64,000 nt of DNA from Candidatus Tenebribacter burtonii (lineage in GTDB: Bacteria > Cloacimonadota > Cloacimonadia > Cloacimonadales > TCS61). Of the stretch, positions 5,618-36,725 are shown in pieces. The DNA lies in assembly GCA_030765625.1 (NCBI GenBank), contig JAVCCF010000109.1, positions 34,991 to 98,990 of the forward strand, given 5' to 3'. Position 1 is the stretch's first letter. Each line of letters opens with the position of its first letter. The notes under the pieces are model-generated. The model saw only the letters and a list, made by a program, of their open reading frames with translations, was not told where the DNA came from and made no database searches. A program made the translations under genes and the position numbers.

Positions 5618-5998
5618 ATGAAGGATTTTAAATATGCTGACCTGACAGATAAAATTATTGGTGCATGTTATAAGATTTATAATACATTAGGTAGCGGATT
5701 TCTTGAATCTGTTTATGAAAATTGTTTAATCATCGAACTAAAGAAGTTAGGATTATATGTAGAAAATCAAAAATCCATTCAGGTGTTTTATAATGATCAG
5801 GAAGTTGGATATTTCATCGCAGATATTATTGTTGAAAATAAAATCATCTTAGAACTGAAAGCAATTAAAGAACTTGCAAAAATCCACGAAGTGCAACTTG
5901 TAAACTATCTTACTGCAACTGGTAAAGATGTTGGATTATTAATAAATTTTGGTAGTAAAGAAGTACAAGTAAAAAGAAAAGTAAGAGTTTTAAGCTAA
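5618..5998 (+). CDS. GxxExxY family protein (PD-(D/E)XK nuclease-like fold)
   Basis: 126-aa ORF with the family signature GSGFLESVYENCL (GxxExxY). Downstream motifs IADIIVENKIILELK and HEVQLVNYL are typical of this family. Confidence 0.85.
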   Translation: MKDFKYADLTDKIIGACYKIYNTLGSGFLESVYENCLIIELKKLGLYVENQKSIQVFYNDQEVGYFIADIIVENKIILELKAIKELAKIHEVQLVNYLTATGKDVGLLINFGSKEVQVKRKVRVLS

Positions 5999-6216: not shown

Positions 6217-7074
6217 ATGGCAGAAAATGTATTTAACGACAAAGCTTTGCAGAATTATCTTAATCAGATTGCTGAGATAGAACCTCTAAGCAGAGAAGAA
6301 GAGCATGCTTTGGCTATCAAAGCTCAAAAAGGTGATAAGGCTGCTATCGAAAAACTTGTTACTTCCAACCTTAAATTTGTAGTTAAAATTGCAGCTAAAT
6401 ATCAAAATAGAGGGCTTACCCTTTCAGAACTAATCAGTGAAGGCAATATGGGTTTGATAAAAGCAATTGATAAATTTGATCCTAAGCTGCATAATAAACT
6501 TATTTCTTATTCTGTTTGGTGGATCAGGCAAAAAATACTTTTTGCTCTTGCAGAGAAAACTTCGCTTATCAGGATGCCGCTTGGAAAAGCAACACAGGCA
6601 AATAAGATCAAATATGCCAAAGATAAAGTTTTCAGTGAAACTGGACATAGGGCAACTATTGAAGAAATTTCTAAGATCACAAATCTTGATAAAAACGCAA
6701 TAAAAAAAGTAAGTGGCCAAACAAAGAATACACTTTCTATTGATAATGCTAATTTTTCTAGAAATCATAGCAACATTGCACTTGGTGATTTGTTAACGGA
6801 TAGAAGTCAAATTGACCCCAAAACTTTGTACTATCGCGAAAAAGTAGAAAAGAGTATTGATAAGTCTATAAATGCTCTTGGTTCTCGTGAAGCTTATATT
6901 GTAAAACAGTATTTTGGTTTGGAAGGTGGAAGATCAAAGAACTTTGCACAGATTGGTGAAGAACTCGGTTTATCACGTGAACGTGTAAGACAGATACAGA
7001 AAGCAACACTAAAAAAAATACTGGAAAATTCCTACGATAAAATTGAAAATGACTTTGATAATTTATTGAAATAG
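6217..7074 (+). CDS. rpoD: RNA polymerase sigma-70 family factor, compact RpoD-like (regions 2-4, no region 1.1)
   Basis: Region 2 LVTSNLKFVVKIAAKYQNRGLTLSELISEGNMGLIKAIDKFDP and region 4 HTH FAQIGEELGLSRERVRQIQ. Its 285-aa length is like the short primary sigma factors of FCB-group bacteria. Confidence 0.75.
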   Translation: MAENVFNDKALQNYLNQIAEIEPLSREEEHALAIKAQKGDKAAIEKLVTSNLKFVVKIAAKYQNRGLTLSELISEGNMGLIKAIDKFDPKLHNKLISYSVWWIRQKILFALAEKTSLIRMPLGKATQANKIKYAKDKVFSETGHRATIEEISKITNLDKNAIKKVSGQTKNTLSIDNANFSRNHSNIALGDLLTDRSQIDPKTLYYREKVEKSIDKSINALGSREAYIVKQYFGLEGGRSKNFAQIGEELGLSRERVRQIQKATLKKILENSYDKIENDFDNLLK

Positions 7075-7143
7075 TTAATTAATATCTTGTTCCCAATTCC
7101 CCGGTTATCTCTCGTTTCCAAAGTCTCTTTGGGAATGTAGAAA

Positions 7144-8544
7144 CTATACCTCTTCATTTTCTAAAATTATATTTTCTAAGTGTCTATTTTTAATTATTTT
7201 CACATCACCAATTATTCCAACGTTTCTTCCAAAATAAACATCACCTGTAACTTTTAGCGTCCTGCATTTTTTCAAAGACGGAATTCCATCTGCAAATCTT
7301 TTTTTAAACTCATTTATATCTTTATAGAATACTTCTTTTAATTCAATATGCGGTACTTTATCATACTCATTTACTAACTTCAATTTATAATCAGATGTAA
7401 GTTCATAAGCATCACTTAAAATTGCCAGCATATCATTTGTCGTTTTTACCGGCGCAAATCTATCACGATGGATTATAATTGCTCTGGAATTTTTAAATAC
7501 ACTTATTGCTGCTCCCATTGCGGATTCCACCTGATAAACTTTTTCTCCATCAACTTCTTTTTTATTCAATATCATTGTTAATGGAAGCAAATATCTGGTC
7601 TCATACAAGCGCTGTTTTAATGCTTTTAGATTTATCCAGAGGTTATTAGTATTGAAATAAGAATATCTATTAATATCTTGAAAAAGTTCAATTTCATCAT
7701 CTGGACATTGTGCAGTTTCCCTGAGCATAAGCTGTCCTTTTTTTGTCTGGGCCAGATGTCCGCCTTTCTTATCCATTTCAGTTCGCTTACAAATTTCCAT
7801 CATGAAAAGTAGTTTTTTTTCAGCAAAATGTGTTAGTATTTTTTCATCAATTACAGCACCAAGATTATCGGAATTGGAAATAAATACATACTCAAATCCT
7901 TGTGTTATTAGTTTTTCCAGGACACCAGAAATTGCCAGAGCAGTGTATATTTCACCATGCCCGGGAGGATTCCAATTGAGATCATTGTTTTCATTTCTTA
8001 GCGGAGAAAGATCACTTAATTTGATCTTGGGAAATTTATTTTGCAAAAAATCTAATGGGATATGAGGGAGAGGTAAATTACTATATTTTTCCAAATAGGA
8101 AAGTGAATCTTTCTGAGTATTAAAGCTGTGCATTAATATCAACGGAATATCTTTGCCGGTTTTTTTTCGTAAGTGTAATATTTGCTGAGACATAACATCC
8201 AGAAAATTATTTTCTCCTTTAATTTTAAGAAGGGTTTTTGCTTTCTCCAAATCCATGCTTGTGCCAAGTCCACCATTTAGTTTTATTACAGCAAGTTTTT
8301 CTAATGGAGAAGATATAGCAGATTCCAAGTTATTATAATCAATAAGATTTTCCTTTGCAGGAGGTTCTATCTCTGATTCTGAAAGTGTTCCGGTTGCACC
8401 TTCAAGAATTTTGTAATATGAATTGGAAAATGATTGTATCACCAGATCTTCCAAACCTTCACTTTCCATTATTTGAACAAATTCTGTTAAGTAACTTTTC
8501 ATGTTTTTCTTATAAAATAGGTTATAAGTTAATTTTTTTAGCAA
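7144..8544 (-). CDS. UDPGP-family (eukaryote-type) UTP--glucose-1-phosphate / UDP-sugar pyrophosphorylase
   Basis: 466-aa ORF with VIKLNGGLGTSM and the downstream NPPGHGEIY-type motif of the UDPGP family. This is not the short bacterial GalU type. An alternative start at Met15 (8502) would remove the overlap with the upstream gene. Confidence 0.8.
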   Translation of the reverse strand: MLKKLTYNLFYKKNMKSYLTEFVQIMESEGLEDLVIQSFSNSYYKILEGATGTLSESEIEPPAKENLIDYNNLESAISSPLEKLAVIKLNGGLGTSMDLEKAKTLLKIKGENNFLDVMSQQILHLRKKTGKDIPLILMHSFNTQKDSLSYLEKYSNLPLPHIPLDFLQNKFPKIKLSDLSPLRNENNDLNWNPPGHGEIYTALAISGVLEKLITQGFEYVFISNSDNLGAVIDEKILTHFAEKKLLFMMEICKRTEMDKKGGHLAQTKKGQLMLRETAQCPDDEIELFQDINRYSYFNTNNLWINLKALKQRLYETRYLLPLTMILNKKEVDGEKVYQVESAMGAAISVFKNSRAIIIHRDRFAPVKTTNDMLAILSDAYELTSDYKLKLVNEYDKVPHIELKEVFYKDINEFKKRFADGIPSLKKCRTLKVTGDVYFGRNVGIIGDVKIIKNRHLENIILENEEV

Positions 8545-9454
8545 TTGAGATATTATTCTTCTTATTTACTTCTCTATTGCGGTTGATAATCAATTCCCCC
8601 AGAAGACCAATCGAGAAGAATTGTAATCCAATTATCATTAAAAGAGTTCCCAGATACAGGAGTGGACGATTATATAATGCTATTCCAAATCCCAGCTTCA
8701 TAATCGAGAGATAGACGGCAATAATGAAACCAACAATACCAAATCCAAAACCGATTCTTCCAAATAAATAGAGAGGACTGTGGATATATCCGGTTACAAG
8801 TTTTACGGTGAGTAAATCAAGGAATCCACGTAAATATCGTTCTGAACCGTACTTGGTTTTTCCAAATTCTCTTTTACGGTGATGAATTGGAATCTCAGCA
8901 ATTTTAAATCCTAAAGAATAAGCTAAAGCTGGAATGTAACGATGCATTTCACCATAAATATCAAGTTCTTGTATGACCTCTTTTCGATATGCTTTAAACC
9001 CGCAATTGTAGTCATGCAATTTTAATTTAAATGTACTGGAAGTCACTTTATTATAAAGTTTAGAAGGCCAAGTTTTGGAGATCGGATCGTGGCGTTTTAC
9101 TTTCCAGCCCGTAACCATATCATATCCTTCTTCCAATTTTTTAATAAATTGCGGAATTTCTTTTGGATCATCCTGAAGGTCTGCGTCCATCGTGAAAACA
9201 ATATCTCCTTTTGCAATTTCAAATCCTACATTTAAACCTGCTGATTTACCAAAGTTCTTCCTGAGTTTTATTAGTTTAATATTTTTATCTTCCGCTGCTA
9301 ATATTTGTAAAATTGTATGGCTGTCATCTGTACTACCATCATCAATAAAAATTATTTCATATTTATACTCTTTAATATTTTCTATGATTTCAGAATACAA
9401 TTGTTTTAAACTATCTTGTTCGTTAAAAACAGGTATCACAAATGATAATTTCAT
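8522..9454 (-). CDS. GT2 polyprenyl-phosphate glycosyltransferase (GtrB/ArnC/dolichyl-P-glucose-synthase-like)
   Basis: N-terminal GT-A motifs SFVIPVFNE, FIDDGSTDDS and DADLQD, plus two C-terminal TM helices. This is the architecture of lipid-phosphate sugar transferases. Confidence 0.8.
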   Translation of the reverse strand: MKLSFVIPVFNEQDSLKQLYSEIIENIKEYKYEIIFIDDGSTDDSHTILQILAAEDKNIKLIKLRKNFGKSAGLNVGFEIAKGDIVFTMDADLQDDPKEIPQFIKKLEEGYDMVTGWKVKRHDPISKTWPSKLYNKVTSSTFKLKLHDYNCGFKAYRKEVIQELDIYGEMHRYIPALAYSLGFKIAEIPIHHRKREFGKTKYGSERYLRGFLDLLTVKLVTGYIHSPLYLFGRIGFGFGIVGFIIAVYLSIMKLGFGIALYNRPLLYLGTLLMIIGLQFFSIGLLGELIINRNREVNKKNNISIAKKINL

Positions 9455-9487
9455 TTTTTCATCCTCACATTTTTATCTATTGATTCG

Positions 9488-10075
9488 TTAAAAGAACATA
9501 TTTACAAAACTCATTATTAACCCGGAAGCTATTGGGATTTTTATATTATCATCTAATGGAATTCTGGAAAATTCTGCAACTGTTGCAGTAAAAGCTCCTA
9601 CTAAAGCAACAACTGGATTTAAGAAGAGAAGTCCAAAAACAAAACATCCGGCAAAGCAAGCTAAACTTCCTTCCAAACTTTTATTGGTATTCAGTATTTT
9701 TCTTTTACCAAGCGGGATACCTACAAGTGCAGCCAAAGTATCTCCAATTGCTAAAAAAGCAAGGGATACAACAGCAATTTCCTTTGAAAAAAAGCCAATA
9801 CATAATACTGCTGAAATCATCAAATATGTTGCTCCCGTGAAATTATGGATTTCATGTTTTCGCAGTAAAAGACCAACTAAATTATAAAAGATACGCTTGA
9901 ATGTTTTATGCTCAAGTCTTGCTATATCAATAACCAGCGCAATAACAGTTAGTGGAATAAGGATCAGGAACATCATTTTCCGATTTTGAAAAATGAAGTA
10001 ATAAGAAAGGGGCAGCAATATCGAACTCACGTGAAATATTTTTCGAAATAATTCCTTCTTCTGTTTTTCTGTCAT
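9488..10075 (-). CDS. CTP-dependent polyprenol (dolichol/phytol) kinase-like membrane protein (COG0170 / CDS family)
   Basis: 195-aa polytopic membrane ORF with AIGDTLAALVGIPLGKRK...NKSLEGSLACFAG, which matches the GDxxAxxxG...K(S/T)xEGS motif of the dolichol/phytol kinase branch. Confidence 0.65.
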   Translation of the reverse strand: MTEKQKKELFRKIFHVSSILLPLSYYFIFQNRKMMFLILIPLTVIALVIDIARLEHKTFKRIFYNLVGLLLRKHEIHNFTGATYLMISAVLCIGFFSKEIAVVSLAFLAIGDTLAALVGIPLGKRKILNTNKSLEGSLACFAGCFVFGLLFLNPVVALVGAFTATVAEFSRIPLDDNIKIPIASGLIMSFVNMFF

Positions 10076-11265
10076 TTCAGTTTTATTTTACTCACAACAA
10101 ATGATTTTGCAACATCCAGCATCAATTTAGGATCTCCTTTTACGGCTTCCGTAAATAGAGCTTTTAAGCTGAATTTATCTGAAGGTATTTTTTTACAGAA
10201 ACCTACTAAATTATTAAATCTTTCATCTGTCATAAAGAGGAATTTTTCTTTCATTGAGTGCATAACTTTTTGTGTATTACCCAATATTTTATCCCATTCT
10301 TTGCGATATTTTTTCAAGAATTTTGCATCGAATCGTCCCTTTTTAACTGCTTCTGCAGCTACCTTCCCAGCAATACTTCCAGCTATCATTCCTTGTACAA
10401 TTCCACCACCGGTTATCGGATTTACCTGTCGTGCTGCATCTCCAACTATCATAAAATTATCTTTAACAATTTCTTTTAAAGTAGCTGAAGTTGGAACTCC
10501 ACCATACATGGTATAAGTAATTGTTGCATCGGGAAATTTCTTTGCCACGAACTCATCTAAGTATTCTTTGGGACCTTTTTTATGTGATAGATGCCCGGCA
10601 ATTCCAATTCCGACATTTGCTGTATTATTAGATTTCGGAAAGATCCAGACATATCCACCAGGTGAAACTTCATTTCCAAAATAGAATTCACATGTATCTT
10701 TTTTAATATCAAGGCCAGCAAGTGTATACTGTACACAAGTATCAATATCCCTGAGAGCTACTGTTGTATTTATTCCTGCCCATCTTCCCACACGGGATTC
10801 TGTGCCGTCAGCAGCAATAACTATATCACATTTTACTTCTCGTGTTTTTCCCATATAACGATATTCTACACCTGTAATTTTATTGTTTTCTTTTATTAGA
10901 TCAAGAGCATCTGCTTTTGTAATTAATCGTGCCCCATGTTTGGCAGCAAGCTCGCAAAGTGCAGTATCAAATATTCTTCTTTCCAGAACATAGCCAATTC
11001 CATTATTATGCATGAATGCACTTTCATTATTAGGAGAGGTAAGTTTTGCAATATCTATCTGCGATGCGATCCAGCGTTTATCAATATCAATAAATGGAAC
11101 AATGCCGTTATGGGAAACACCTTCCGCACAGCGTACGGGGATTCCCGGTTCTCTATCGCGTTCCAACATAAGAACAGAAGCACCGTTCTCTGCCGCAAAT
11201 CTGGCTGCAACGCTTCCCGCAGGTCCGGCTCCGATCACGACAATATCGTATCTATCTTTTACCAT
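10072..11265 (-). CDS. geranylgeranyl reductase family flavoprotein (archaeal GGR-like)
   Basis: N-terminal FAD fold YDIVVIGAGPAGSVAARFAAENGASVLMLER, RCAEG motif and GDAA motif (IVGDAARQVNPITGGG). Length 397 aa. A 4-nt overlap with the downstream gene indicates translational coupling. Confidence 0.85.
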   Translation of the reverse strand: MVKDRYDIVVIGAGPAGSVAARFAAENGASVLMLERDREPGIPVRCAEGVSHNGIVPFIDIDKRWIASQIDIAKLTSPNNESAFMHNNGIGYVLERRIFDTALCELAAKHGARLITKADALDLIKENNKITGVEYRYMGKTREVKCDIVIAADGTESRVGRWAGINTTVALRDIDTCVQYTLAGLDIKKDTCEFYFGNEVSPGGYVWIFPKSNNTANVGIGIAGHLSHKKGPKEYLDEFVAKKFPDATITYTMYGGVPTSATLKEIVKDNFMIVGDAARQVNPITGGGIVQGMIAGSIAGKVAAEAVKKGRFDAKFLKKYRKEWDKILGNTQKVMHSMKEKFLFMTDERFNNLVGFCKKIPSDKFSLKALFTEAVKGDPKLMLDVAKSFVVSKIKLK

Positions 11266-11450
11266 TATTCACCTTCCTCAATAGCTTTTGCAGGACACAC
11301 CTTTAAACAATTCATACAATTTGTGCATATATCGTTATCGATCTTAACTTTGAACTCTGTTACGGTAATCGCATCAACGGGGCATACTGCAACACAGGTT
11401 CCGCAAATATCGCATAATTCGGGTATAACTTTCATAAAATATTTCTCCAT
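11265..11450 (-). CDS. 2x[4Fe-4S] ferredoxin
   Basis: 61-aa ORF with two CxxCxxCxxxCP motifs (CDICGTCVAVCP and CTNCMNCLKVCP). Its stop overlaps the GGR start. Confidence 0.85.
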   Translation of the reverse strand: MEKYFMKVIPELCDICGTCVAVCPVDAITVTEFKVKIDNDICTNCMNCLKVCPAKAIEEGE

Positions 11451-13022
11451 TTATAAGATATAATTATTTTCTCGGTAATCAATAAATTTAAAAGATGAAT
11501 CTGTAAAAGTGAAGACGACATTATAGGACACCCCTTGTTTTATCTTATTCTCTAATTTCTTAAATTGTATTCTTTGAATATCTCGCTTAGGAAGGTAATC
11601 TAAAAGAAGAAATTTTGGTTCAGGGTTTCCCTGCCCGAAGGGTTGCAACAGACTATACTCCATTTTTATATATTCATTAAATTTATCCAGTTCTCTACTG
11701 TTGATTACAGCATCAATATCAATTCTTTTGTTATCTTCGATAGCTATTTGATTTTTATCAACATATTCTTCAAATTTTTTAATAAATTTTTCTACTTCAC
11801 TGCTTCTAACTTTAAATCCAGCAGCTTTTGCATGTCCACCATATTGTATAAGATATTCACGGCAATAAGTGAATGCATCAACCAGGTTAAAACCATTGGT
11901 TCCACGTGCTTCTCCAACTGCAATACCGTTTTTATTCTTGATGAAAACTACGGGAATTTTATATTTTTTTGTAATGAAAGAAGCTGAATAACCCAACAGC
12001 TCAAATGGTATTTGTTGATCAATATCTTTAAATATATAATAATTTCCCAGTGTTGGAGAAATTTTTGTTCGAATATAGTGACGAATATCATCGAGTTTAG
12101 CTTCTTGATTCTTTTGCAGGCTTTGCATTTCAGCAATGATAGCATCTTTTTCTTTATTGTGGGTTACTAACAATTTCATGCTTTTATGGTTACCATTTTT
12201 ACCTCTACCGTTAGAGAGTAATTTGATAATGTAATGAATATTATTCATCCTCTGAGAATAGTTGATCCCTGGCTCCAGATAAGGATTTAATTTATAAAGG
12301 GTATTATTATCAAATGTGTTCCAAGTATCCAGTACTTCCTTTACAAATATTCTATTTACATCCAACAATGGAACTTTATCTGAAATAGTGCCAACCGCAA
12401 CCCAAAATAGATAGTTTTTATCATCTGTTATTCCAGTTATTTCAGAAATTCTTTTTATTAGAAAATATACTACTCCAACACCTGCTATCATATCAAATGG
12501 AAATTTGCAATCGTTTTGCTTGGGATTAACAATCGCCATTGCTGGTGGCAAAAGACTCTCCAGAATAATATGATGATCTGTAACGATAACATCGCAACTA
12601 TTTTTCATGATCTTTGTAATTGCTTTATTTTCAGAGACACCACCATCAACCGTAATCACTAAATTGAATTTTTCCTCTTTTACTTTATCAATAAAATTCT
12701 GTTGAATTCCATGATTGTCTATCAATCTATTGGGGATGTAATAAAAATGATTTTGAGAACCTAATTTCTCCAAAAAGTCATATAAGATATATGTAGAGGT
12801 TATACCATCAACATCGTCATGTCCATAAATAATTATTTTCTCTTTATGATGAATTGCTTCAATTATTCTGTCAGCAGCGATATCGATATCTTTGAGCAGG
12901 ATAGGATCCGGCAAATCGGACATTGATGGGTAAATAAAGGAATTACTAATTCCCCTGTTCGCCTTTATCTGATCAAAGATAGAGTCTTTATCAGAATGTT
13001 TAAAACTCCACCTAAAGTTCAT
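11451..13022 (-). CDS. recJ: single-stranded-DNA-specific exonuclease RecJ (DHH/DHHA1)
   Basis: DHH motifs IIYGHDDVDGITS, VITVDGG and VIVTDHH, plus DHHA1 GGHAKAAGF. Confidence 0.8.
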   Translation of the reverse strand: MNFRWSFKHSDKDSIFDQIKANRGISNSFIYPSMSDLPDPILLKDIDIAADRIIEAIHHKEKIIIYGHDDVDGITSTYILYDFLEKLGSQNHFYYIPNRLIDNHGIQQNFIDKVKEEKFNLVITVDGGVSENKAITKIMKNSCDVIVTDHHIILESLLPPAMAIVNPKQNDCKFPFDMIAGVGVVYFLIKRISEITGITDDKNYLFWVAVGTISDKVPLLDVNRIFVKEVLDTWNTFDNNTLYKLNPYLEPGINYSQRMNNIHYIIKLLSNGRGKNGNHKSMKLLVTHNKEKDAIIAEMQSLQKNQEAKLDDIRHYIRTKISPTLGNYYIFKDIDQQIPFELLGYSASFITKKYKIPVVFIKNKNGIAVGEARGTNGFNLVDAFTYCREYLIQYGGHAKAAGFKVRSSEVEKFIKKFEEYVDKNQIAIEDNKRIDIDAVINSRELDKFNEYIKMEYSLLQPFGQGNPEPKFLLLDYLPKRDIQRIQFKKLENKIKQGVSYNVVFTFTDSSFKFIDYRENNYIL

Positions 13023-13029
13023 TTAGTTT

Positions 13030-14250
13030 CTACCTGTCTTTATCAGCTTTAGGAATTTCACGGTGTTCAATTCTTTTGTATCGTTTCTTGAAAATATCAA
13101 AACCGGTAATTCCTAATGAGAACATAACGGATTCGTCACTGAGTCCATGTTTGTCTACATCCCCACGAGTCGTATAATTAACTGCAAATTCAATTTTTTT
13201 ATTGGGAGATTTTAGAGGAATTGAAAAGCCAAAAGTTAGAGCTTTTTCAATTATCTTTTCATTGTTTACATCGAATGGAAGCTCACGATAATATCCACCG
13301 ATCCTTAATGGAATTTTCTCATACCATGAACCATAACCACTTAACGGATCGTATGCAAATCCCAAACCAAGCTTTAATGTATTCTTGTCGTAATTTTCTG
13401 TATCTTGCCATATTTGATAATATCCATCAAAAGAGGCTTTGTATTTTTCTAAAAATTTCCAGGTAATTCCACCTGATATTTGTACTGGAACCTCAAAATG
13501 AAAATCATCACTTAATGTATCAGCGTAGGGTGTATGAGCATATTTATAGGTTTCGCTTCCTTCCAATTTTACATAGGAAGAATAGACAATACCTAGAGAA
13601 ACTTTACTGATCTTTTTAGAAAGTCCAACTGTAAATCCGGGGTTTTTGTAAATTTTCTCAATCTCGTATTTTGCATCTTCGTAATCATCATTTTCAAAAT
13701 CACGATTCCAATACCTGATTCGATGACCAAGATAATAATTCATTGCAACCCCAATGTTTACAATAGAGCTTTTGTATGCATAAACCATATCAGCTTTATA
13801 AAGAGAAGTACTCAATCTGTTGATTTCGGAATATTGCAATGTATCTCCAAAACTTACAAAAGGATCACATTCAATTGTATTCTCAATATTCCCGGATGCA
13901 ATTGAATTAAAGCTAAAGGAAAATCTGTGTTTTTTTATTGGAATAGTCATTGTGAAATACGGCATATAAATGCCATCATCACGAAACTCATTATTATCAG
14001 AATCTTTGTACCACATATACCCAAGTGAAGTTGCAGTTGAAAATAATACATTATTCGTTGTAGTTGCAATTGACGGGTTGTGTAAGTTTGGATTTATACG
14101 GAATATATCTGCAGATCCTGTTTCACCCATACCCAAGCCATAAACATCATTTCCGTAATATTCCAGCGGCATTCCATCAAATGAAAAAATTGAATTACCA
14201 GCTAATAAAGCTGTAGTTAATAAGAATATCATTATTATTTTGTATTTCAT
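13030..14250 (-). CDS. putative outer-membrane beta-barrel protein
   Basis: Signal peptide MKYKIIMIFLLTTALLAG. Alternating aromatic/Gly-rich beta-strand pattern throughout. First gene of the minus-strand operon that runs down to 7144. Confidence 0.5.
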   Translation of the reverse strand: MKYKIIMIFLLTTALLAGNSIFSFDGMPLEYYGNDVYGLGMGETGSADIFRINPNLHNPSIATTTNNVLFSTATSLGYMWYKDSDNNEFRDDGIYMPYFTMTIPIKKHRFSFSFNSIASGNIENTIECDPFVSFGDTLQYSEINRLSTSLYKADMVYAYKSSIVNIGVAMNYYLGHRIRYWNRDFENDDYEDAKYEIEKIYKNPGFTVGLSKKISKVSLGIVYSSYVKLEGSETYKYAHTPYADTLSDDFHFEVPVQISGGITWKFLEKYKASFDGYYQIWQDTENYDKNTLKLGLGFAYDPLSGYGSWYEKIPLRIGGYYRELPFDVNNEKIIEKALTFGFSIPLKSPNKKIEFAVNYTTRGDVDKHGLSDESVMFSLGITGFDIFKKRYKRIEHREIPKADKDR

Positions 14251-16521: not shown

Positions 16522-17301
16522 CTACTCCGCCACTACTATCACACCGGTTCCAATTTTGTTTTTGTTATAATAATCCAATAACATAAAACCAAAGGCAATG
16601 GGGTAAAAGAGAATATAATAAATTGGAAGAAATATCGCTAACATCTTAGATTTTGAGATCAAAGATAGTGGAATCTTTAGTGCCAGTTTCCAATATATTT
16701 GTCCAAATTTTCCATAAGAATATTCAAATGATCTAATTTTAAAACCTGCTCTATCCAACTTGGAACAGATATCTTCTCTGCTGTAACCCGGACGAACATG
16801 TTCCGCTGTAAATTTGGCAGATTCATCTAAATTACTGGGTGATGAAATTATCAGTTTTCCACCTTGTGTTAGCACCTTTCTAAAATTCTGTAGAACTTGC
16901 ACATCATCTTCAATGTGTTCCAGAATGTCGATTGCGATGATCAGATCAAAATTTTCTTTTGGAATGTAATCTACCAAATCTGCCTGTTGAATCGTGAATT
17001 TTTGCCAGCCAACTTTTTGTGCATAATTGGAAAATGAATCCATATAATCTGTCTTAATGTCAACAGCGTGAACTAATGCTTTTTTAAATTTGTTTAGAAT
17101 AAAGTAGGAGTACTGCCCAAATCCGGCACCAGCATCATAAAAGCGCAATGGGTTAATTACCGGAAAATACTTTTTGATCTCTCTTTTTACATACCACTGA
17201 CGCAATAATAACATATCTAAAAGTATATAAAACATCTTTCTGAAAACAGGAAATTTATCTATTGCTACTGCGAATTTATCTTTCACTTTATCATATTGCA
17301 T
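16522..17301 (-). CDS. class I SAM-dependent methyltransferase with C-terminal membrane anchor
   Basis: SAM motif I YDAGAGFGQYS, plus AVDI and the post-I/II motif DLIIAIDILEHIEDD. C-terminal hydrophobic helices. Confidence 0.7.
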   Translation of the reverse strand: MQYDKVKDKFAVAIDKFPVFRKMFYILLDMLLLRQWYVKREIKKYFPVINPLRFYDAGAGFGQYSYFILNKFKKALVHAVDIKTDYMDSFSNYAQKVGWQKFTIQQADLVDYIPKENFDLIIAIDILEHIEDDVQVLQNFRKVLTQGGKLIISSPSNLDESAKFTAEHVRPGYSREDICSKLDRAGFKIRSFEYSYGKFGQIYWKLALKIPLSLISKSKMLAIFLPIYYILFYPIAFGFMLLDYYNKNKIGTGVIVVAE

Positions 17302-18333
17302 TTACATAACACTCCTGCAAGCCCATAATCCACCTGCAATATTTATATCGGGTTTGGTAATTAAATATACCGGAAACTGAACAAGAAGTTGCTGCCGTAT
17401 CAGACAATTATGAAATTCCTTCATTAAATCACTTTGATGAATAAATTTTGCATTACTAATTGTGGATGCTCCGGATAGAAAAATTCCACCGTAAGGTTGT
17501 ATTGTCAATGCCATTACCTGAATAATTATTCCAACACATCTGTAATAAATATTGAGTGCTTCGATAGCATATTTATCACTTCCCTTTACTGCTGCTCTTG
17601 CAATTTCAGAAACATCTTTTTTGCTCCACTCAATCTTTTCTAATTGTAAAATTGCTTTGTAAGTTTTGCATAATCCTTTTCCTGAAACAAAATCTTCAAA
17701 ATTTAAGAAATTTTTTTTAGGTTTTTCAGAAAGAATAATACTAATTATTTCGGAATGCCTTTTATCTAATGGTGGAATCTGAATGTGCTGTATTTCTGAG
17801 GATAACACATCTTTTACTTTTTCGCCGGAATGCGTGGTAAACTCTATAATACTTGCAGTTCCAAATCCTGTTCCAGGTGCGATTACAAGTTTGTTATTTA
17901 TACGATTCTTGGCAGAAAAATCCGGCTTATACAGAATTTCACACTGATTAGATTTAATTTTATCTTTTTCTTCCATATCCAGAATACCATATCCTGCCAA
18001 CTCCATGTCATTAACCATGATCGTCTTTTCTTTTGGGAATCCCCACGCGATCAGATCCTCCAAAATAATTGTCGGCATATTTTTCCAATTTGTGATATTT
18101 ACTTTCCGATGATCTATTACTGCTCCAGCAAATCCAATTACACAACTAGTAGGAAAAATGCCGGAGTTAATATTATTCAATGAAGATTTAATGAAGTTTT
18201 TTAGTTCTTCTTTAGAACTTATTTTCTGCTTATATTCTTGAAAGGTGTAAACAATCTTTCCTTTCTCAATTATTTCTGCACGGAGGCGAGTATATGTTCC
18301 ACCTACATCAACTGCCAAATTAAATTTTTTCAT
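17302..18333 (-). CDS. glk: glucokinase (Glk family)
   Basis: LAVDVGGTYTRL phosphate-1 motif, VIAPGTGFGTA, and GGIFLSGA near the C-terminus. Collinear with E. coli-type Glk. Confidence 0.75.
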   Translation of the reverse strand: MKKFNLAVDVGGTYTRLRAEIIEKGKIVYTFQEYKQKISSKEELKNFIKSSLNNINSGIFPTSCVIGFAGAVIDHRKVNITNWKNMPTIILEDLIAWGFPKEKTIMVNDMELAGYGILDMEEKDKIKSNQCEILYKPDFSAKNRINNKLVIAPGTGFGTASIIEFTTHSGEKVKDVLSSEIQHIQIPPLDKRHSEIISIILSEKPKKNFLNFEDFVSGKGLCKTYKAILQLEKIEWSKKDVSEIARAAVKGSDKYAIEALNIYYRCVGIIIQVMALTIQPYGGIFLSGASTISNAKFIHQSDLMKEFHNCLIRQQLLVQFPVYLITKPDINIAGGLWACRSVM

Positions 18334-18443: not shown

Positions 18444-19292
18444 TTAATTCAGCTTCTTCCATCTGACACATTTCCCGGCAGGCAAATTGTTACCTGATTC
18501 TGATTTTATTGTGAGGTCAAATGTTTCTATTTTTCCTTTTTTCAAATTATGTAATTTTGTAAGTTCGTTTCGTAATTCAAGATGTCCAAAATTTTTGTCG
18601 TGACACGAAAGGATTATAAATTCTGGATCATTACTTAGAAGTTTATCGACTAATTTCATTAATTTTGGGAGATCTCTACCGATCTTCCACGTAGTTCCTT
18701 TTTTCCCGTGACCAAAAGCAGGTGGATCTAAAATTATACCATCATAAACAGAGCCACGCTTAACTTCACGAGATAGAAAAGAAATTATATCATCGATGAT
18801 CCAGCGAATATTATTATTTTCTAAATTAGATAATCGGCAATTTTGTTTTGCCCAATTAATACTGCTGGAAGAAGCATCGATGTGAGTGAGGGTCGTTCCT
18901 TTTGTAGATGCAAAAAGAGTGGATGCTCCTGTATAGGCAAATCCATTTAAAATATTCAAAGGTCGATATGCTTGAAATATCACATCTCTCAGCCACTGCC
19001 AATTTGTAAATTGTTCAGGGAATATCCCTATTTGTTGATTGGGAGAGATCTTTAATTCAAATGTTAAATTATCGCATTCAAAATATGGTAAATTCTCTAC
19101 TGAGAAAATAATCCATTTATCTTGCAATGGATCAAATTTAGCATGATATTGTTGCCAAATGTCATTTCCTAGTTTTCGTTTCCATGCAGCCTGCAAAGCA
19201 GGTCGGCGAATGATAACTTCTCCAACTTGCTCTAATTTCTCAAAATTCCCACAATCCAATAATGTGTAATTACATTTTACTAAATCTTTCAT
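18444..19292 (-). CDS. SAM-dependent methyltransferase (RlmI/RlmK-like, PF10672-type)
   Basis: LNGFAYTGASTLFA (SAM motif I) and IILDPPAFG (catalytic DPPxF-type motif). Confidence 0.65.
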   Translation of the reverse strand: MKDLVKCNYTLLDCGNFEKLEQVGEVIIRRPALQAAWKRKLGNDIWQQYHAKFDPLQDKWIIFSVENLPYFECDNLTFELKISPNQQIGIFPEQFTNWQWLRDVIFQAYRPLNILNGFAYTGASTLFASTKGTTLTHIDASSSSINWAKQNCRLSNLENNNIRWIIDDIISFLSREVKRGSVYDGIILDPPAFGHGKKGTTWKIGRDLPKLMKLVDKLLSNDPEFIILSCHDKNFGHLELRNELTKLHNLKKGKIETFDLTIKSESGNNLPAGKCVRWKKLN

Positions 19293-19605
19293 AAAATAAT
19301 AATTTGATAATAATGAAAATCTGTAAAGCCAAAACTATTATTGATGTAATACGTGATAGAAAAAGCATTAAGATTAATTTTTTAGAATAATAAACATATA
19401 TTGCGGAACAAATATTGCATTTTAGAGATTGAAGGATTGATTTAAATAAAACTCTTTGCTTTTCTTGACAAATATATTGAGTTTCTATTTTGTCAAACCC
19501 ATGCAAACTGTATGTAATTTCTTTATATGCAGTTTGTTAGAAATATATGCAGTATGAAATTTGCACTTATTTCAAAAAAATAAAAAATTAATTATAGGAG
19601 TAATT

Positions 19606-22600
19606 ATGAAAAAATTATTTTTGTTTATTGTAACTGTGCTGTGTTTTACATCACTTTTTGCAAATGCAGCAATACCATTTAATGAGGAATATTTTCTTCC
19701 CAACAGAATAATTGTGGGATTTAAATGGGATACAATTGGCAACAAAGAATGTATTTTGGATTATGAATTTAGCGATGGTATTATTAAAACAGGAATAACA
19801 AGTTTTGATCAACTGTCTGAACAATTTGAATTTGTAGAATTAGCACAGCGAATAGATTTTGTGAAAGATCTGGATTGGAACGAAGATGGACTCTATCCAA
19901 GATGTATTTACAATATCACTCTGGCAAGTAATGATAAAATCAATGAAGCATTGGAAGCACTTGCAGACGATCCAAATATAATCTATGCTGAATTTGAGCC
20001 TGTTTACAAATTTGAGTATGTTCCAAATGATGCATCTTATGATATGCAATGGTATCATCAGTTTATCCAAAGTGAACCTACATGGGATTATACAACAGGA
20101 AGCGAAGATGTTATTATCGGAATTGTAGACTCTGGAATTAAATGGAACCATTCTGATCTGCAGGATAATATCTGGATCAATGAACCTGAACTTAATTCAA
20201 CGTCAGGCGGGAATGTCATGAACATAAATTGGACTGCTGGTACTGTTTCTGGTGGTAATGGAATAGATGATGATGGAAATGGTAAGATAGACGATTGTAT
20301 TGGCTGGAATTTCTATGGTACCCAAAGTAATCAGTCATATCAAGGTTATGCAGATAATTCTCATGGTACTCATGTTGCAGGATGTGCAGGTGCAGTTGGA
20401 GACAACTATATTGGTGTTACAGGTCCAATGATGAACGTTAAACTGATCTCATCTCGCCACTCACCTAATAATTTTGCAACTAATAGTATTTGGTCTGGTG
20501 ATCTTGGAATTAATTATTGTGCAAATTCAGGCGCAGACATTATTAATTGTAGTTTTGGTGGACCTGGTGGAAGTACAACTTATAATAATGCTATTAATAA
20601 CGCCATGAGTCTTGGAGCTATTGTTGTTTGTGCTGCAGGAAATGATAATGAAGATATTGGCATATATGCTCATTATCCGGGTAATGCTACAAACGCAGTA
20701 TGTGTTGCTGCTACCGGTCCTAACAATGATGTAAGAGCTGATTATTCTAATTATGGAACACCTGTTGATGTTTCTGCACCAGGTTCAGGTATATATTCTA
20801 CGGTAATTGGCGGAAGTGGTTACGAAAATTATGATGGTACTTCTATGGCTTCTCCTGTAGCAGCCGGTGTTGCTGGTCTTATTAAATCTATTCATCCTGA
20901 TTTAACTTCTGAAGAACTTAAAGCTAGATTGGAATTAACTTGTGATAATATTGATGCAGTTAATCCTACTTATATTGGTGATTTAGGAACAGGACGGGTG
21001 AATGCTTTTAAGGGAGCTATGTACGACTTGATTCCCAATATTACAATTTCAGCATTTATAGCTGCTGAACAAACTGGTGATGGTGATGGAGTACCTAATC
21101 CGGGTGAGATAGTAAATTTAATAATTAATCTGGAGAATGATGATTTCTGGCTTGATGCAGAAGATGTTACTGCTACTCTCAGTTGTGAGGTTGCCGAAAT
21201 AACGATACTCAATGATGAATCTTTTTATTCTGATATTTCATCAGGATCTAATGGTTGGAATTCCAGTGATCCTTTTAGCTTTGAAACTCCGCCGGAACTT
21301 TCTAATTTCATAATTCCTTTCACCTTGACCGTTTCTGCTAATCAAAGTGCTGCTTGGCCTTATTTGGTGGAACTTGAGATGGTAGTTGAGTTAACGCTGG
21401 CTCAAGCTGGCTGGCCTCTGGTTCTGGAAAGTGTTTCAACATCAAGTGGTGCGATTGTAGATCTTGAAGATGATGGTTCAAAAGAAATAATATTTGGTGA
21501 TTATATGGGCATGATTCATGTTATGCATGCAGATGGAACTCCCGTTGCTCCATTTCCTATTGATACTGGTGCTACAATTGGAGTCGCTGTTGCTGTTGGT
21601 TTAGTAGATTGTGATGAATATGAAGATATCGTAATTGGTAATGATGCTGGTCATGTAATTGCATATGATCATAACGGAAACATTATTTTTGATTATCTAG
21701 CGGGTGGGATTATAAAAAGTAATCCTATGATTGCCGATGTTGATGGAAATGGTTTAATGGAAGTGATAGTTTGTACGTACCCTATGGGTGCAGTTCATAT
21801 TATTAATTCAGATGGAACTTCTTTCCCAAACTTCCCAGCTTCATTAGATAGTCCGGTACTGTCTTCTGCTGCTATTGGAGATTTGAATGATGATGGAAAT
21901 CTTGAAATTCTGGTCATTACATTAACTGGTTCTTTGAATGCTATTTCTTCCAATACGGGTTCCAATCTTACCGGATGGCCCTACGCTCTGGGTTCAGGTT
22001 CAACTCAAGGACCGACACTATCAAATTTAGATTCCGATGTTTATCCTGAAGTTCTTATCGCTACGGTTTCAACTCCAGGCAATGTTGTTGTTATTGACAA
22101 TGATGGTTCTTTAATGCTGGATATAGCAGTTGGTACTCAAGTTCGTACTGCAATTGTAACTGCAGACTTTAATAATAATGAAAACGCAGACATCTGTTTT
22201 ATCGATTTTGACGGAAATGTGCATATTGTAGATCAAGCTGGAAATGATCTTCCAAACTTTCCTGTTAATATTGGTGAATCAGTTGATTCAACACCCGTTA
22301 TTGTTGATATGGACGCAAATGGAACGCTCGATGTTGTATTTGGAGATAATGCTGGATATTTGCACTCAATAGATATTACTGGTAATGAAACCTATGCATT
22401 CCCAATAAATTTAGGGAGTTCCCTCAAAATAGCTCCTGCCGTAGGATATGCAGATAATGACGGAGATATTGAGATACTTATACCAAATCAAATATCTTAC
22501 TATTTGATAGATTACAAAAATACAAGTGGAAATGTACAATGGGCTAATTTTAAACGTAATCCTCAAAGAACTGGTAATGCTCTTAATCCTACGTCAGGAA

Positions 22601-22902: not shown

Positions 22903-22953
22903 CGTAAAGCAAATATTAAATGTTGGTTTTGCGGCACGAAACAACATATATGC

Positions 22954-22983
22954 AAAAGGGGAAAGCATTAGCTTTCCCCTTTT
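22954..22983 (+). terminator. Rho-independent terminator
   Basis: Perfect 13-bp stem aaaaggggaaagc / gctttcccctttt with loop atta. It ends in a T-run, 52 nt after the S8 gene stop. Confidence 0.85.
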
Positions 22984-23129
22984 GCTATAAAAAGCAAAAA
23001 AATGATGATAATATAACAAAAAGTATTTCCACTAATTTTAGTGTTCGTATTAAGCACTTAATGATATTTTAAGTAAAAATTATTTGACAGACACTAATAT
23101 AATTACATAGATAAAATTGGAGTAAGTTA

Positions 23130-27050: not shown

Positions 27051-27079
27051 TATTTATTTTCTTTTTCTTCTTGATTAAA

Positions 27080-28756: not shown

Positions 28757-28869
28757 AAACCAATTTATTTTTTATTATGCAATAAATATACCAAAAACCG
28801 TCTGTAATTGACGAATGATTAACAAGAAAATTAGTTCTTTTTTAATAAAAATAACTTAATAAGTTTTCC

Positions 28870-32529: not shown

Positions 32530-32644
32530 ATTTACCTCAATTTAATTAAATAAGTACTTGATTATTTTTAGGAAAAGAGCGTCAATAAATTTTGATATCA
32601 AATATAACAACAAGATTTATAGTCTGGTTATTTATATCTTTGGT

Positions 32645-34363: not shown

Positions 34364-34740
34364 ATATTTCCTTATACTTTTTAATATTCGCAACAATCAG
34401 AAAAATAAGAAATGTTTCTGAAAATTACGTAAACCAAGAATTATGAGTGGGTTATATTAGCAAGGTTTTTGTTTTTTAGTCACGAATGAACATAGATAAA
34501 AATTGATAAAGTATCAAAACAATTATCTTCTTGTTCGTTTTTCTTAATACGATAATCAGTATAAAGTACAGAAGTGTTGGATATAAAAAACAATAGCTAT
34601 AAACCAATCGAATTTATACTCAACTTTTGTATTTTCAGGATTGATAAGCAATGTAACAGTTATGAGTTTTTAAATATTAAATACTCCTTGCTTAAATTCA
34701 AAAGGATGATAAAAATGTGTATTATAAATCAGGAGGCGAA

Positions 34741-36657: not shown

Positions 36658-36691
36658 TTGATTAAAAAAATATTATACAAACAAGTATATT

Positions 36692-36725
36692 CGTCACATA
36701 GCTTCTACTGTGTGACGTTTTTTTT
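36692..36725 (+). terminator. Rho-independent terminator
   Basis: Stem cgtcaca / tgtgacg (7 bp) with a 12-nt loop, followed by tttttttt. It lies 35 nt after the stop at 36657. Confidence 0.7.

Follow-up and report, generated by a model that had tools for sequence, protein, structure and literature searches.

A packed block of seven genes

The window analysed here, a stretch of 64,000 nt from Ca. Tenebribacter burtonii (Cloacimonadota), contains a packed, co-directional block of seven minus-strand genes (7144-14250) in the order OMP-recJ-fdx-ggr-kinase-GT2-UDPGP, with strand switches flanking it on both sides. The first gene (13030..14250, -) encodes a BamG-like outer-membrane beta-barrel protein (OMP), which scores 109.9 bits with the NCBIfam BamG model NF053685, below its cutoff of 250, and has no match in a Pfam scan. 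It lies 7 nt upstream of the gene for a RecJ-family DHH/DHHA1 single-strand exonuclease (11451..13022, -; TIGR00644 recJ, 328.8 bits; Pfam DHH and DHHA1 matches), whose TAA stop (11453-11451) runs straight into ATG 11450 of a gene for a 61-aa 2x[4Fe-4S] ferredoxin (11265..11450, -). Translation of the ferredoxin may instead begin at its second ATG (11435; 56 aa), preceded by a GGAG at a distance of 8-11 nt; the RecJ-ferredoxin distance is 0-15 nt depending on the start. The ferredoxin stop shares one base with the start of a geranylgeranyl reductase gene (GGR; 10072..11265, -) in a TAATG at 11265, and the GGR stop overlaps the start of a gene for a kinase-type membrane protein (9488..10075, -) by 4 nt (ATGA, 10072-10075). 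A 33-nt spacer containing a GAGGA Shine-Dalgarno separates the kinase from a GT2 polyprenyl-phosphate glycosyltransferase (8522..9454, -), and the block ends with a eukaryote-type UDP-glucose pyrophosphorylase (UDPGP; 7144..8502, -). The longest UDPGP ORF (7144-8544, 466 aa) opens on TTG, but homologues have 451-452 aa and align from ATG 8502; this ATG is therefore the likely start, giving 452 aa and a 19-nt spacer after GT2.

A sequence-only reading of this DNA had proposed a five-gene, tightly packed operon running from the ferredoxin to UDPGP. All five minus-strand ORFs are present where it placed them, every gene identification holds, and its junctions at 11265 and 10072-10075 can be read directly, but the third overlap (8522-8544) is an artefact of a mechanically chosen longest ORF with TTG. 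Those five genes are indeed packed, but RecJ and OMP are equally tight, making the block one of seven. The block genes are presumably co-transcribed. Promoter and terminator scans said nothing on this either way, with 38 promoter-like sites counted against 39 expected. By function, RecJ is unrelated to the rest of the block, and OMP probably stands outside its lipid chemistry. RecJ synteny with the block is conserved in related loci, most of which also keep OMP upstream of RecJ. Because these two genes are packed just as tightly as the others, abutting boundaries alone are no proof of a common pathway.

An archaeal-type reductase and its ferredoxin

The ferredoxin (Pfam Fer4, 8.6e-15) carries two CxxCxxCxxxCP motifs and probably serves the GGR as its dedicated electron donor. 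This pairing, proposed earlier, gains support from natural fusions of Fer4 to GGR (P0240 and L053). The GGR of M. acetivorans requires a ferredoxin from its own locus (PMC10821996), and the window likewise has a small 2x[4Fe-4S] ferredoxin directly upstream, although its host is a bacterium.

The GGR (397 aa) belongs to the archaeal type of FAD-dependent prenyl reductases, as the sequence-only reading had it. It scores 235.8 bits with TIGR02032, above the cutoff of 158.8, matches GGR_cat (PF22578), and scores higher with the Thermoplasmatales DGGGPL reductases of NCBIfam (269.6 bits) than with BchP/ChlP (154.6) or MenJ (71.5), but it falls far below the equivalog cutoffs of all three archaeal DGGGPL-reductase models (score/cutoff 269.6/780, 190.1/580 and 118.6/700). 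The best solved relative is the DGGGPL reductase of Thermoplasma acidophilum (PDB 3OZ2; 2.2e-72, 37% identity over 382 aa, nearly full length), and in common with the archaeal GGRs it has GxGxxG, the catalytic Cys of RCxEG, PxxYxWxFP, xGDAA and RxFD. The motifs of the window protein are complete (GAGPAG, RCAEG, PGGYVWIFP, IVGDAA, RIFD, TGGG), and the catalytic ones are retained even in copies of 38-50% identity. The enzyme is predicted to saturate prenyl chains of geranylgeranyl type or longer by hydrogenating their C=C bonds. Since GGRs are promiscuous, its target may be the ether lipids made by GGGPS and DGGGPS, the alcohol of the kinase, or both.

The GGR of Cloacimonetes has been grouped with Euryarchaeota and assigned by Villanueva 2020 to saturating GGGPS/DGGGPS-made ether lipids (PMC7852524). 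The Cloacimonetes GGGPS and DGGGPS are active, are encoded elsewhere in the genome, where their genes co-localise with a polyprenyl-synthase gene and apart from GGR, and have a TACK-like affinity, unlike the Euryarchaeota-related GGR; CarS is absent (PMC7852524). The window GGR is the same orthologue in the same phylum, and MAG NIOZ-UU2 from that study (L022) carries RecJ-Fdx-GGR-kinase-GT2-UDPGP, but the study does not describe the ferredoxin, kinase, GT2 and UDPGP context (PMC7852524). Unlike archaeal GGR genes, the window ggr is translationally coupled to a prenol-kinase-like gene and does not lie among ether-lipid genes.

A probable prenol kinase

The 195-aa polytopic protein encoded after GGR has a CTP-transferase fold (AF2 model, pLDDT 89.5) and is a probable CTP-dependent prenol or polyprenol kinase of the SEC59/DGK1/VTE5 (COG0170) type. 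Because it falls below every Pfam and NCBIfam threshold for the kinase family, its membership is based on relatives, motifs and fold. Source databases name it 'SEC59/DGK1/VTE5 family' or 'dolichol kinase', PF01148 matches 14 of 24 family members, and the kinase motif DxxAxxxGxxxG-x8-K[ST]xEG[ST] is present. TmCdsA is the only PDB relative, but the CdsA signature was not found in the sequence and there was no CarS match, which agrees with the earlier view of a kinase-like protein distinct from CdsA. The SEC59/VTE5/FolK/PolK/DGK1 kinases are likewise polytopic, with a CdsA-like fold that lacks the CdsA C-terminal signature, and Pfam places them with CdsA in the CTP_transf_1 clan. The window protein shares K[ST]xEG[ST] and RKxxH with these kinases, and its invariant Asp of DxxAxxxG is equivalent to Asp177, which is essential in DGK1 (PMC2459266). 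Among the family members are enzymes proven to phosphorylate dolichol, phytol, farnesol/geranylgeraniol or DAG with CTP (PMC2459266, PMC10849223), and the window protein would likewise use CTP. Eukaryotic dolichol kinases are much longer; the window protein falls in a prokaryotic subfamily of ~190-200 aa, whose thousands of members (7394 cluster representatives) are uncharacterised. Relatives with a fused GT2 or GT21 domain exist, which independently ties this kinase type to lipid glycosyltransferases.

The glycosyltransferase and the UDP-glucose pyrophosphorylase

The 310-aa GT2 (Pfam Glycos_transf_2, 8.8e-38) has a DAD motif at residue 90 and hydrophobic segments at ~227-261 and 264-291, and so resembles ArnC, GtrB, DPMS and Alg5 in having a GT-A domain with DxD and two C-terminal TM helices. 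It aligns over its full length to ArnC (186 bits) and GtrB sll0501 (112 bits) and scores 78 bits with P. furiosus DPMS, all PDB entries. The earlier description as GtrB/dolichyl-P-glucose-synthase-like is right as to a polyprenyl-phosphate GT2 with two C-terminal TM helices, but the protein stands nearer to ArnC than to either GtrB or DPMS, while falling below the equivalog cutoffs of both ArnC and PgfS. Its surroundings differ from arn and gtr systems, which lack a CTP-type kinase; the locus has no UDP-Ara4FN genes, unlike the arn operon, and no nearby flippase (GtrA, ArnE/F) or GT-C transferase (GtrC, ArnT). Neither a GtrA/ArnEF-like flippase nor a GT-C transferase was found in the block or in a scan that covered 48 of the 53 window ORFs, which counts against the kinase-GT2 reading given below, since a prenyl-phosphate-sugar system would be expected to have them.

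UDPGP (PF01704, 449 bits) has the LNGGLGTSM loop. Its best PDB matches are the Leishmania and T. brucei UGPs (~1e-101), followed by those of plants, human and yeast, which bears out the proposed eukaryotic type; an NCBIfam scan matched no prokaryotic family.

Conservation across Cloacimonadota

Among 80 Cloacimonadota GTDB species representatives, kinase and GT2 are adjacent in 78, so the link between them is very strong. Fdx-GGR precedes the kinase in 62 of 79 loci; the absences fall mainly in one clade, and the GGR-kinase gap is <=0 nt in 24 of 61 loci. UDPGP follows GT2 in 36 of 67 genomes, essentially one clade, and is confined to GGR-positive loci (35 vs 0, with L026 corrected). The arrangement is far beyond chance: 80 species-level genomes show the same order, over kinase identities as low as 48%. 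These counts are phylogenetically non-independent and reflect few underlying events: on the kinase+GT2 tree, ~3 changes explain GGR and ~2 explain UDPGP. The conserved core is kinase+GT2, to which Fdx-GGR and UDPGP are optional add-ons.

Discussion

We favour, at about even chances, an account in which the block holds two lipid modules differing in age and conservation, kinase-GT2(-UDPGP) and Fdx-GGR. The first would be a phylum-wide core of kinase and GT2, joined by UDPGP in the T. burtonii clade. A CTP-dependent SEC59/VTE5/DGK1-type kinase would turn a free isoprenoid alcohol into its monophosphate, and the ArnC/GtrB-type GT2 would transfer a sugar from a UDP-sugar to this prenyl phosphate at the cytoplasmic face. 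The adjacent UGPase would supply UDP-glucose, and it is on the strength of this one neighbour that the sugar is probably glucose. In the second module, the small 2x[4Fe-4S] ferredoxin would reduce the FAD of GGR, and the reduced enzyme would hydrogenate C=C bonds in prenyl chains of the geranylgeranyl type or longer. Fdx-GGR acts like an archaeal-type cassette that can be separated from the core, a module of its own. We infer the substrates of all the block enzymes.

The sequence-only reading had instead joined the genes in a single linear pathway, in which the ferredoxin-driven GGR saturates a polyprenol, the kinase phosphorylates it and GT2 glucosylates it with UDP-glucose made in situ. In the form weighed here, it would act on a free polyprenol and yield a partly saturated ('archaeal-dolichol-like') polyprenyl-phosphate-glucose carrier in a bacterium. 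Its genes and its kinase-GT2 link stand, but Fdx-GGR and UDPGP are optional, and we hold the whole only as a tentative alternative. Several features favour it: GGR and kinase overlap as ATGA, such gaps recur, GGR stands directly upstream in 61-62 of 79 species, UDPGP is confined to GGR-positive loci, and GGR lies apart from the GGGPS/DGGGPS/polyprenyl-synthase cluster (PMC7852524). The ATGA overlap and the distance from that cluster also imply a closer GGR-kinase tie than 'two modules' suggests. Archaea offer a precedent, since in H. volcanii it is GGR that saturates the omega isoprene of Dol-P (PMC10821996, PMC5088576). However, a whole clade keeps kinase-GT2 without Fdx-GGR (17 of 79 loci), so the pair can do without saturation; RecJ and OMP are as tight and as conserved; DGGGP is the substrate of the nearest GGRs that have been characterised; and the next-nearest kinase subfamily (Ca. 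Eisenbacteria) has its kinase gene flanked by those for a lytic transglycosylase and SecA, with neither GGR nor GT2.

The eukaryotic dolichol-phosphate-glucose route consists of polyprenol reduction, dolichol kinase and Alg5, and its reduction on the free alcohol makes a prenol kinase necessary, which speaks for the single pathway. The same step order is possible in the window (reduction, CTP-dependent phosphorylation, glucosylation from UDP-glucose), and the kinase superfamily, GT2 type and UDPGP family are shared. The window reductase is nevertheless a GGR flavoenzyme unrelated to the SRD5A3 type, and the carrier lipid of the window is a hypothetical one. To our knowledge, GGRs do not form the alpha-saturated unit that defines dolichol. 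The route has been reviewed (PMC13586052, PMC5088576). In archaea, the Dol-P units that GGR saturates are the omega and internal ones, with alpha-saturation being GGR-independent (PMC10821996, PMC5088576), and in prenyl (di)phosphates and alcohols GGRs as a rule do not reduce the allylic unit (PMC10821996). As nothing at the locus indicates alpha-unit saturation, the 'dolichol-like' product proposed earlier is not supported.

Prenol salvage is improbable. A C15-C20 kinase, resembling VTE5 or FolK of plants and cyanobacteria or PolK of Plasmodium, would recycle geranylgeraniol or environmental phytol, GGR would turn geranylgeranyl and phytyl chains into one another, and the product would go to isoprenoid lipids. 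Such GGR and VTE5 logic is familiar from phototrophs, and the kinase is short, as in prokaryotic members. The family has proven kinases of phytol, farnesol and geranylgeraniol, Synechocystis slr1652 among them (PMC10849223), and the habitat is anoxic water beneath phototrophs (PMC8542988, PMC7852524). However, the near-invariant partner (78 of 80) is a prenyl-monophosphate glycosyltransferase, not a VTE6-type kinase making the diphosphate, and no such second kinase was found among the window ORFs scanned.

A DGK1-like CTP-dependent glycerolipid kinase, regenerating phosphatidate or archaetidate from DAG or digeranylgeranylglycerol/archaeol, with GGR on the same ether lipid and GT2 unrelated or serving another lipid, is very unlikely. 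Yeast DGK1 of the same family phosphorylates DAG with CTP (PMC2459266), one homologue bears the NCBI name 'diacylglycerol/polyprenol kinase family protein', the fused GT21-type domains belong to the family of ceramide glucosyltransferases, enzymes that glycosylate lipid hydroxyls, and Cloacimonetes lack CarS (PMC7852524), but GT2 aligns full length with ArnC and GtrB and not with DAG glycosyltransferases, and direct support for a glycerolipid substrate is lacking. We equally discount a meaningless adjacency, neighbours frozen by phylum-wide synteny and expressed or used independently, which would suit RecJ and OMP in the same conserved packing but not the conserved start/stop overlaps, the Fdx-GGR and kinase-GT fusions, or the biochemically consecutive roles of kinase, GT2 and UDPGP (prenyl-phosphate acceptor, transferase, UDP-sugar donor).

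On the two-module account, the kinase+GT2 core of Cloacimonadota probably makes a prenyl-phosphate-hexose, which would serve as a donor for envelope glycosylation. The block thus provides a new conserved gene context for enzyme families that are already known.

Results

All five minus-strand reading frames that the sequence-only reading had placed in the block are present in the sequence at the positions claimed, and their borders are close-set. The stop codon of the ferredoxin gene (Fdx) and the start codon of the geranylgeranyl reductase gene (GGR, 10072-11265) share one base (TAATG at 11265), and the GGR stop overlaps the start of the gene for a 195-aa kinase-type protein (9488-10075) as ATGA at 10072-10075, both junctions being read from the sequence. 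A 33-nt spacer containing a GAGGA ribosome-binding site leads from the kinase gene to that of a GT2 glycosyltransferase (8522-9454). The abutting or overlapping boundaries claimed for the block thus stand at 11265 and 10072-10075, but the one at 8522-8544 needs a mechanical TTG start of the UDPGP-family gene; because UDPGP homologues have 451-452 aa and their alignments begin at ATG 8502, a 19-nt GT2-UDPGP spacer is more likely. The stop of RecJ (11451-13022, minus strand) directly precedes the Fdx ATG and a gene for a BamG-like outer-membrane protein (OMP; 13030-14250, minus strand) lies 7 nt upstream of RecJ, so the packed, co-directional block comprises seven genes, with strand switches on its flanks at about 7100 and about 14400. 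Close-set gene borders are not peculiar to its “lipid” genes. A terminator scan of the minus strand from Fdx to UDPGP found none inside the block, and a promoter scan of the block, with models that leave out FCB-type promoters, gave nothing above shuffles; both scans were simple and are uninformative on transcription. The block is flanked by a PD-(D/E)XK (PDDEXK_3) protein (5618-5998, plus strand), a MerR regulator and an RpoS/RpoD-like sigma factor, and because in a distant relative (L002, 15859-16251) these neighbours again lie downstream of the cluster, synteny around the block is also conserved. A protein of identical sequence in the public collection assigns the window to Candidatus Tenebribacter burtonii, of the Cloacimonadota.

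The family identifications made earlier for the ferredoxin, GGR and UDPGP hold by domain matches and motifs. We took a 2x[4Fe-4S] ferredoxin to be a protein of about 55-60 aa with two CxxCxxCxxxCP motifs, and Fdx is such a protein, with CDICGTCVAVCP at 13 and CTNCMNCLKVCP at 42, a strong match to Pfam Fer4 and a further one to Fer4_10. GGR scores above the cutoffs of TIGR02032 GG-red-SF (235.8 bits against 158.8) and PF22578 GGR_cat (100.5 bits against 27). The motif set listed for archaeal GGRs (GxGxxG, catalytic Cys47, PxxYxWxFP, LxGD and RxFD; PMC10821996) is complete, catalytic cysteine and PxxYxWxFP included, as GAGPAG(12), RCAEG(45), RIFD(97), PGGYVWIFP(202) and IVGDAA(273). GGR falls far below the equivalog cutoffs of the DGGGPL reductases (NF041160, 269.6 vs 780; NF041080, 190.1 vs 580; NF041385, 118.6 vs 700) and below the family cutoffs of the side-chain reductases (BchP-ChlP, 154.6 vs 343.3; ChlP, 96.4 vs 505.3; MenJ, 71.5 vs 700). 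It scores highest with models of archaeal DGGGPL reductases (269.6 and 190.1 bits) and lower with BchP/ChlP (154.6) and MenJ (71.5), so that by model scores it does not group with BchP or MenJ, in agreement with the archaeal type first ascribed to it. The closest solved relative is that of Thermoplasma acidophilum (3OZ2; 2.2e-72, 37% identity, nearly full length), followed by the Sulfolobus GGR structure at about 1e-25.

In a GGR homologue search, the best 120 matches listed are all from Cloacimonadota. The catalytic motifs are kept even in orthologues with just 38-50% identity, which argues that GGR has been under selection throughout. Two of these copies are unusually divergent: Fdx-GGR of locus L051 has 38% identity to that of the window, with a kinase at about 54%, and Fdx-GGR of locus L053 has 41%, with a kinase at about 53%. 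L051 groups with a GGR-negative clade in the tree described below and L053 branches separately, as sister to the whole GGR-negative group including L051; catalytic motifs are intact in both. In L053 (400-1833, 478 aa) and in the relative protein P0240 (468 aa; Fer4 at residues 1-59, GGR from about 78), Fdx and GGR form a single reading frame, and these natural fusions support a redox partnership between the two. The GGR of M. acetivorans requires a ferredoxin from its own locus, and archaeal GGRs are promiscuous (PMC10821996, PMC5088576).

The window copy of the 195-aa protein has no Pfam or NCBIfam match of its own (none to PF01148 at E<=1), and NCBIfam gave nothing relevant for its family even at E<=1; 14 of 24 orthologues match PF01148 CTP_transf_1, weakly (best 5e-7). 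The CdsA structure of Thermotoga (TmCdsA) is the sole PDB match of the family profile (E=0.015) and the only structural match of the AF2 model (pLDDT 89.5; prob 1.0, TM 0.41). Kinase-type members of the superfamily are marked by the motif DxxAxxxGxxxG-x8-K[ST]xEG[ST]. The window protein has it, in the form DxxAxxxGxxxG-x8-KSxEGS, at residues 112-137 (DTLAALVGIPLGKRKILNTNKSLEGS), where D112, A115, G119, G123, K132, E135 and G136 are invariant among the 24 orthologues; an RKxxH motif is also present. CdsA enzymes carry the C-terminal PROSITE pattern S-x-[LIVMF]-K-R-x4-K-D-...-H-G-G-x-x-D-R-x-D. This signature is absent from the 195-aa protein, which has no HGG anywhere, and we rejected a CdsA identity on that ground; by this signature, the grouping with CdsA that had been named as a refuting outcome is not borne out. 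The aspartate of the kinase-type motif corresponds to D177, without which yeast DGK1 is inactive (PMC2459266). In Cloacimonetes MAGs, a bona fide CdsA is encoded by a gene of its own (PMC7852524). Nor is the protein a candidate for the “missing” Cloacimonetes CarS, since it has the kinase-type motif and no CarS signal: 24 family members gave no Pfam match to CarS at E<=1, and no CarS chain appeared in the PDB profile search at E<=10 or among the top 50 Foldseek hits. Because of the invariant motif, the DGK1-like aspartate, the absence of the CdsA signature and the names given by source databases (“SEC59/DGK1/VTE5 family” or “dolichol kinase”), we assign the 195-aa protein as a predicted kinase-type member of the CTP-transferase superfamily, neither CdsA nor CarS.

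GT2 matches PF00535 (130 bits) and aligns at full length with solved ArnC (186 bits, residues 2-291) and GtrB (112 bits, residues 2-296), and through its N-terminal domain with an archaeal DPM synthase (78 bits). A DAD motif at residue 90 agrees with the DxD criterion, and two hydrophobic segments within 227-291, together with the full-length alignments, bear out the C-terminal pair of transmembrane helices that had been described. These features point to a prenyl-monophosphate glycosyltransferase. A match to the ArnC or PgfS equivalog would fix its sugar specificity, and GT2 is below both cutoffs (200.5 vs 529 and 155.7 vs 500). The UDPGP protein matches PF01704 at 449 bits (cutoff 22) and has the nucleotide-binding loop LNGGLGTSM; all 16 of its PDB matches at E<=1e-5 are UDP-glucose pyrophosphorylases, with Leishmania and Trypanosoma UGP at the top (about 1e-101), and curated prokaryotic families gave no match. 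By these matches it is clearly a UDP-glucose pyrophosphorylase (UGPase) of the eukaryote-like family. A glucokinase (PF02685, 1.2e-41) is encoded at 17302-18333 on the minus strand, which is also that of the block, some 3 kb upstream of it, and could be a source of glucose phosphate for the UGPase. On either side of the glucokinase gene is one for a SAM-dependent methyltransferase, at 16522-17301 (product with a hydrophobic C-terminus) and at 18444-19292.

Scanning a single genome for each prokaryotic species turned up 439 kinase relatives, of which the best 80 are all from Cloacimonadota, counting two records labelled Armatimonadota that may be mislabelled bins. We mapped the seven window proteins onto these 80 loci. 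GT2 lies immediately downstream of the kinase in 78 of the 80, and Fdx-GGR immediately upstream of it in 61 of 79, with GGR and the kinase overlapping or abutting in 24 of those 61; in one further locus (L026) Fdx-GGR is also present, about 640 nt upstream. RecJ is directly followed by the kinase, with Fdx-GGR absent, in 17 loci. UDPGP follows GT2 in 36 of 67 loci, all of them GGR-positive. In a neighbour-joining tree built from kinase plus GT2, the absence of GGR takes about three changes, the GGR-negative loci (L057-L082 type) amounting in essence to a single clade of 16 with UBA-series MAGs among its records; Ca. Cloacimonas acidaminovorans is a GGR-negative organism. The presence of UDPGP takes about two, with the window in the main clade; since so few evolutionary events underlie the counts, the co-occurrence statistics are not to be over-read.

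In UDPGP-negative lineages, the genes that come after GT2 are of mixed kinds (M3 peptidase, LolE/LolD-like, MOP-flippase-like membrane protein, Era, acetyltransferase), and no consistent extra partner was found there. In two of these loci (L046, 8638-10110; L072, 4412-5908), a multi-transmembrane protein of about 490 aa follows GT2 and resembles, by eye, a MOP/Wzx-type polysaccharide flippase. Distribution outside the phylum was judged solely through the next-nearest kinase subfamily, from Ca. Eisenbacteria (L084-L086, kinase at 7001-7579), where the kinase sits between a lytic transglycosylase (SLT), with an ATGA-type overlap in L086, and SecA, a housekeeping envelope context. Because these loci have neither GGR nor GT2, the linkage of both to the kinase is a Cloacimonadota feature. 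A cluster-representative search gave 7394 relatives of the kinase. Four more distant ones are fused to other domains (P0345, P0359, P0394 and P0303), three to a C-terminal Glyco_transf_21/GT2 domain (590-644 aa) and one to an N-terminal dephospho-CoA kinase (402 aa); the former support the pairing of kinase and glycosyltransferase.

The window was searched for further partners with Pfam over 48 of its 53 reading frames. Neither the block nor these 48 frames hold a flippase (GtrA, ArnE/F) or a GT-C transferase (GtrC, ArnT), the partners expected to use a prenyl-phosphate-sugar, and the 48 frames hold no GGGPS, UbiA/DGGGPS, CarS, G1PDH, cis-prenyltransferase or PAP2. One weak match to the GGGPS model, within RecJ (16.9 bits, E=0.0025), was taken as chance. 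Elsewhere in the window, 19561-37822 encodes six secreted proteins with type IX secretion C-terminal sorting domains (Por_Secre_tail/CHU_C): an S8 subtilase (19561-22902, plus strand), an fn3 protein (23130-27050, plus), an Ig-like protein (27080-28387, minus), a C25 gingipain-like peptidase with propeptide (28870-32529, minus), a PQQ/BamB-like propeller (34717-36657, plus) and a small protein (36947-37822, plus). In Bacteroidota, type IX cargo of this kind is anchored to modified LPS; a link between such cargo and a prenyl-phosphate-sugar donor is pure speculation. Two small clusters lie within 46990-52724, ArsR with an ArsP-type permease, DsbD_TM and thioredoxin (46990-50207, plus) and Fur with FeoA and FeoB (50229-52724, minus).

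Discussion

We propose that the block may combine two lipid modules, a kinase-GT2 core and a separable Fdx-GGR unit. In the core, the CTP-type kinase would convert a free isoprenoid alcohol into its monophosphate, which the ArnC/GtrB-type GT2 would glycosylate from a UDP-sugar; glucose is the sugar suggested by the neighbouring UGPase in the Tenebribacter clade. Fdx-GGR would be an archaeal-type saturase with its own reductant, acting on the carrier lipid, on ether lipids or on both. To this two-module arrangement, as judged from the genes and their neighbourhoods, we give about even weight.

The sequence-only reading had joined all five proteins into a single linear pathway in which GGR acts on the carrier lipid, and we consider this rather unlikely as a whole. 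Its parts list and its kinase-GT2-UDPGP logic are sound; the role given to GGR and the “dolichol” label are unproven. The ATGA coupling of GGR to the kinase, their adjacency throughout the phylum and the separation of GGR from the GGGPS/DGGGPS cluster all argue for the carrier as target, but a whole clade has kinase-GT2 without GGR, RecJ and the outer-membrane protein are equally tightly packed and conserved, and the closest characterised enzymes reduce DGGGP. A “dolichol-like” product in the strict, alpha-saturated sense finds no support: in Haloferax, both archaeol chains and the omega isoprene of dolichol phosphate are saturated by GGR, and alpha-saturation does not depend on it (PMC10821996, PMC5088576). 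A tentative proposal, and to us a doubtful one, is that Cloacimonadota produce a polyprenyl-phosphate-glucose carrier with partial saturation by means of an archaeal-type, ferredoxin-driven GGR, a polyprenol kinase that uses CTP and a prenyl-phosphate glucosyltransferase. The kinase family has members proven to phosphorylate dolichol, phytol, farnesol/geranylgeraniol or diacylglycerol (PMC2459266, PMC10849223), and we give smaller weight to salvage of C20 prenols and to a DGK1-like glycerolipid kinase. Smaller weight likewise goes to the notion that the gene adjacency is meaningless.

All of the protein families are already known, as is the Cloacimonadota GGR itself. Villanueva et al. reported Euryarchaeota-related GGRs in Cloacimonetes MAGs and assigned them to the saturation of GGGPS/DGGGPS ether lipids; GGGPS and DGGGPS proved active by experiment and are encoded together at another place in the genome, neither CarS nor G1PDH was found, and the gene neighbourhood of the GGR is not described (PMC7852524). 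One MAG from that study, NIOZ-UU2, is among our loci (L022) and carries RecJ-Fdx-GGR-kinase-GT2-UDPGP. Full-text literature searches found no paper in which the GGR of Cloacimonadota is linked with a cluster of kinase, GT2 or UDPGP genes, and the Tenebribacter paper does not discuss the genes of the block. The new element is the setting of GGR, conserved and translationally coupled, which yields a testable alternative for its function and a hypothesis for a large kinase family.

Cloacimonadota are flagship bacterial candidates for “mixed” archaeal/bacterial membranes, and the sole saturase assigned to that pathway is the GGR of this block, whose block-mates across the phylum are a ferredoxin, a dolichol/phytol-kinase-type enzyme and a prenyl-phosphate sugar transferase; it does not lie among ether-lipid genes. 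If it serves glycan-carrier chemistry instead of, or besides, archaeol saturation, the partly saturated carrier would be to bacteria what dolichol-phosphate sugars are to archaea. Were the carrier its target, saturation might be lacking from the ether lipids predicted for Cloacimonadota, and a saturated glycosyl carrier in the archaeal style would exist in bacteria; were it to serve both, this would be a further case of GGR promiscuity, like that in Haloferax. In either case, a cassette of four or five genes is compact enough for a direct test in E. coli engineered for archaeal lipids; on the carrier reading it would also be a testable model for the archaeal Dol-P kinase and saturation steps. 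The kinase is one of thousands of prokaryotic COG0170 proteins, and its near-obligate pairing with GT2 gives that family a concrete functional hypothesis.
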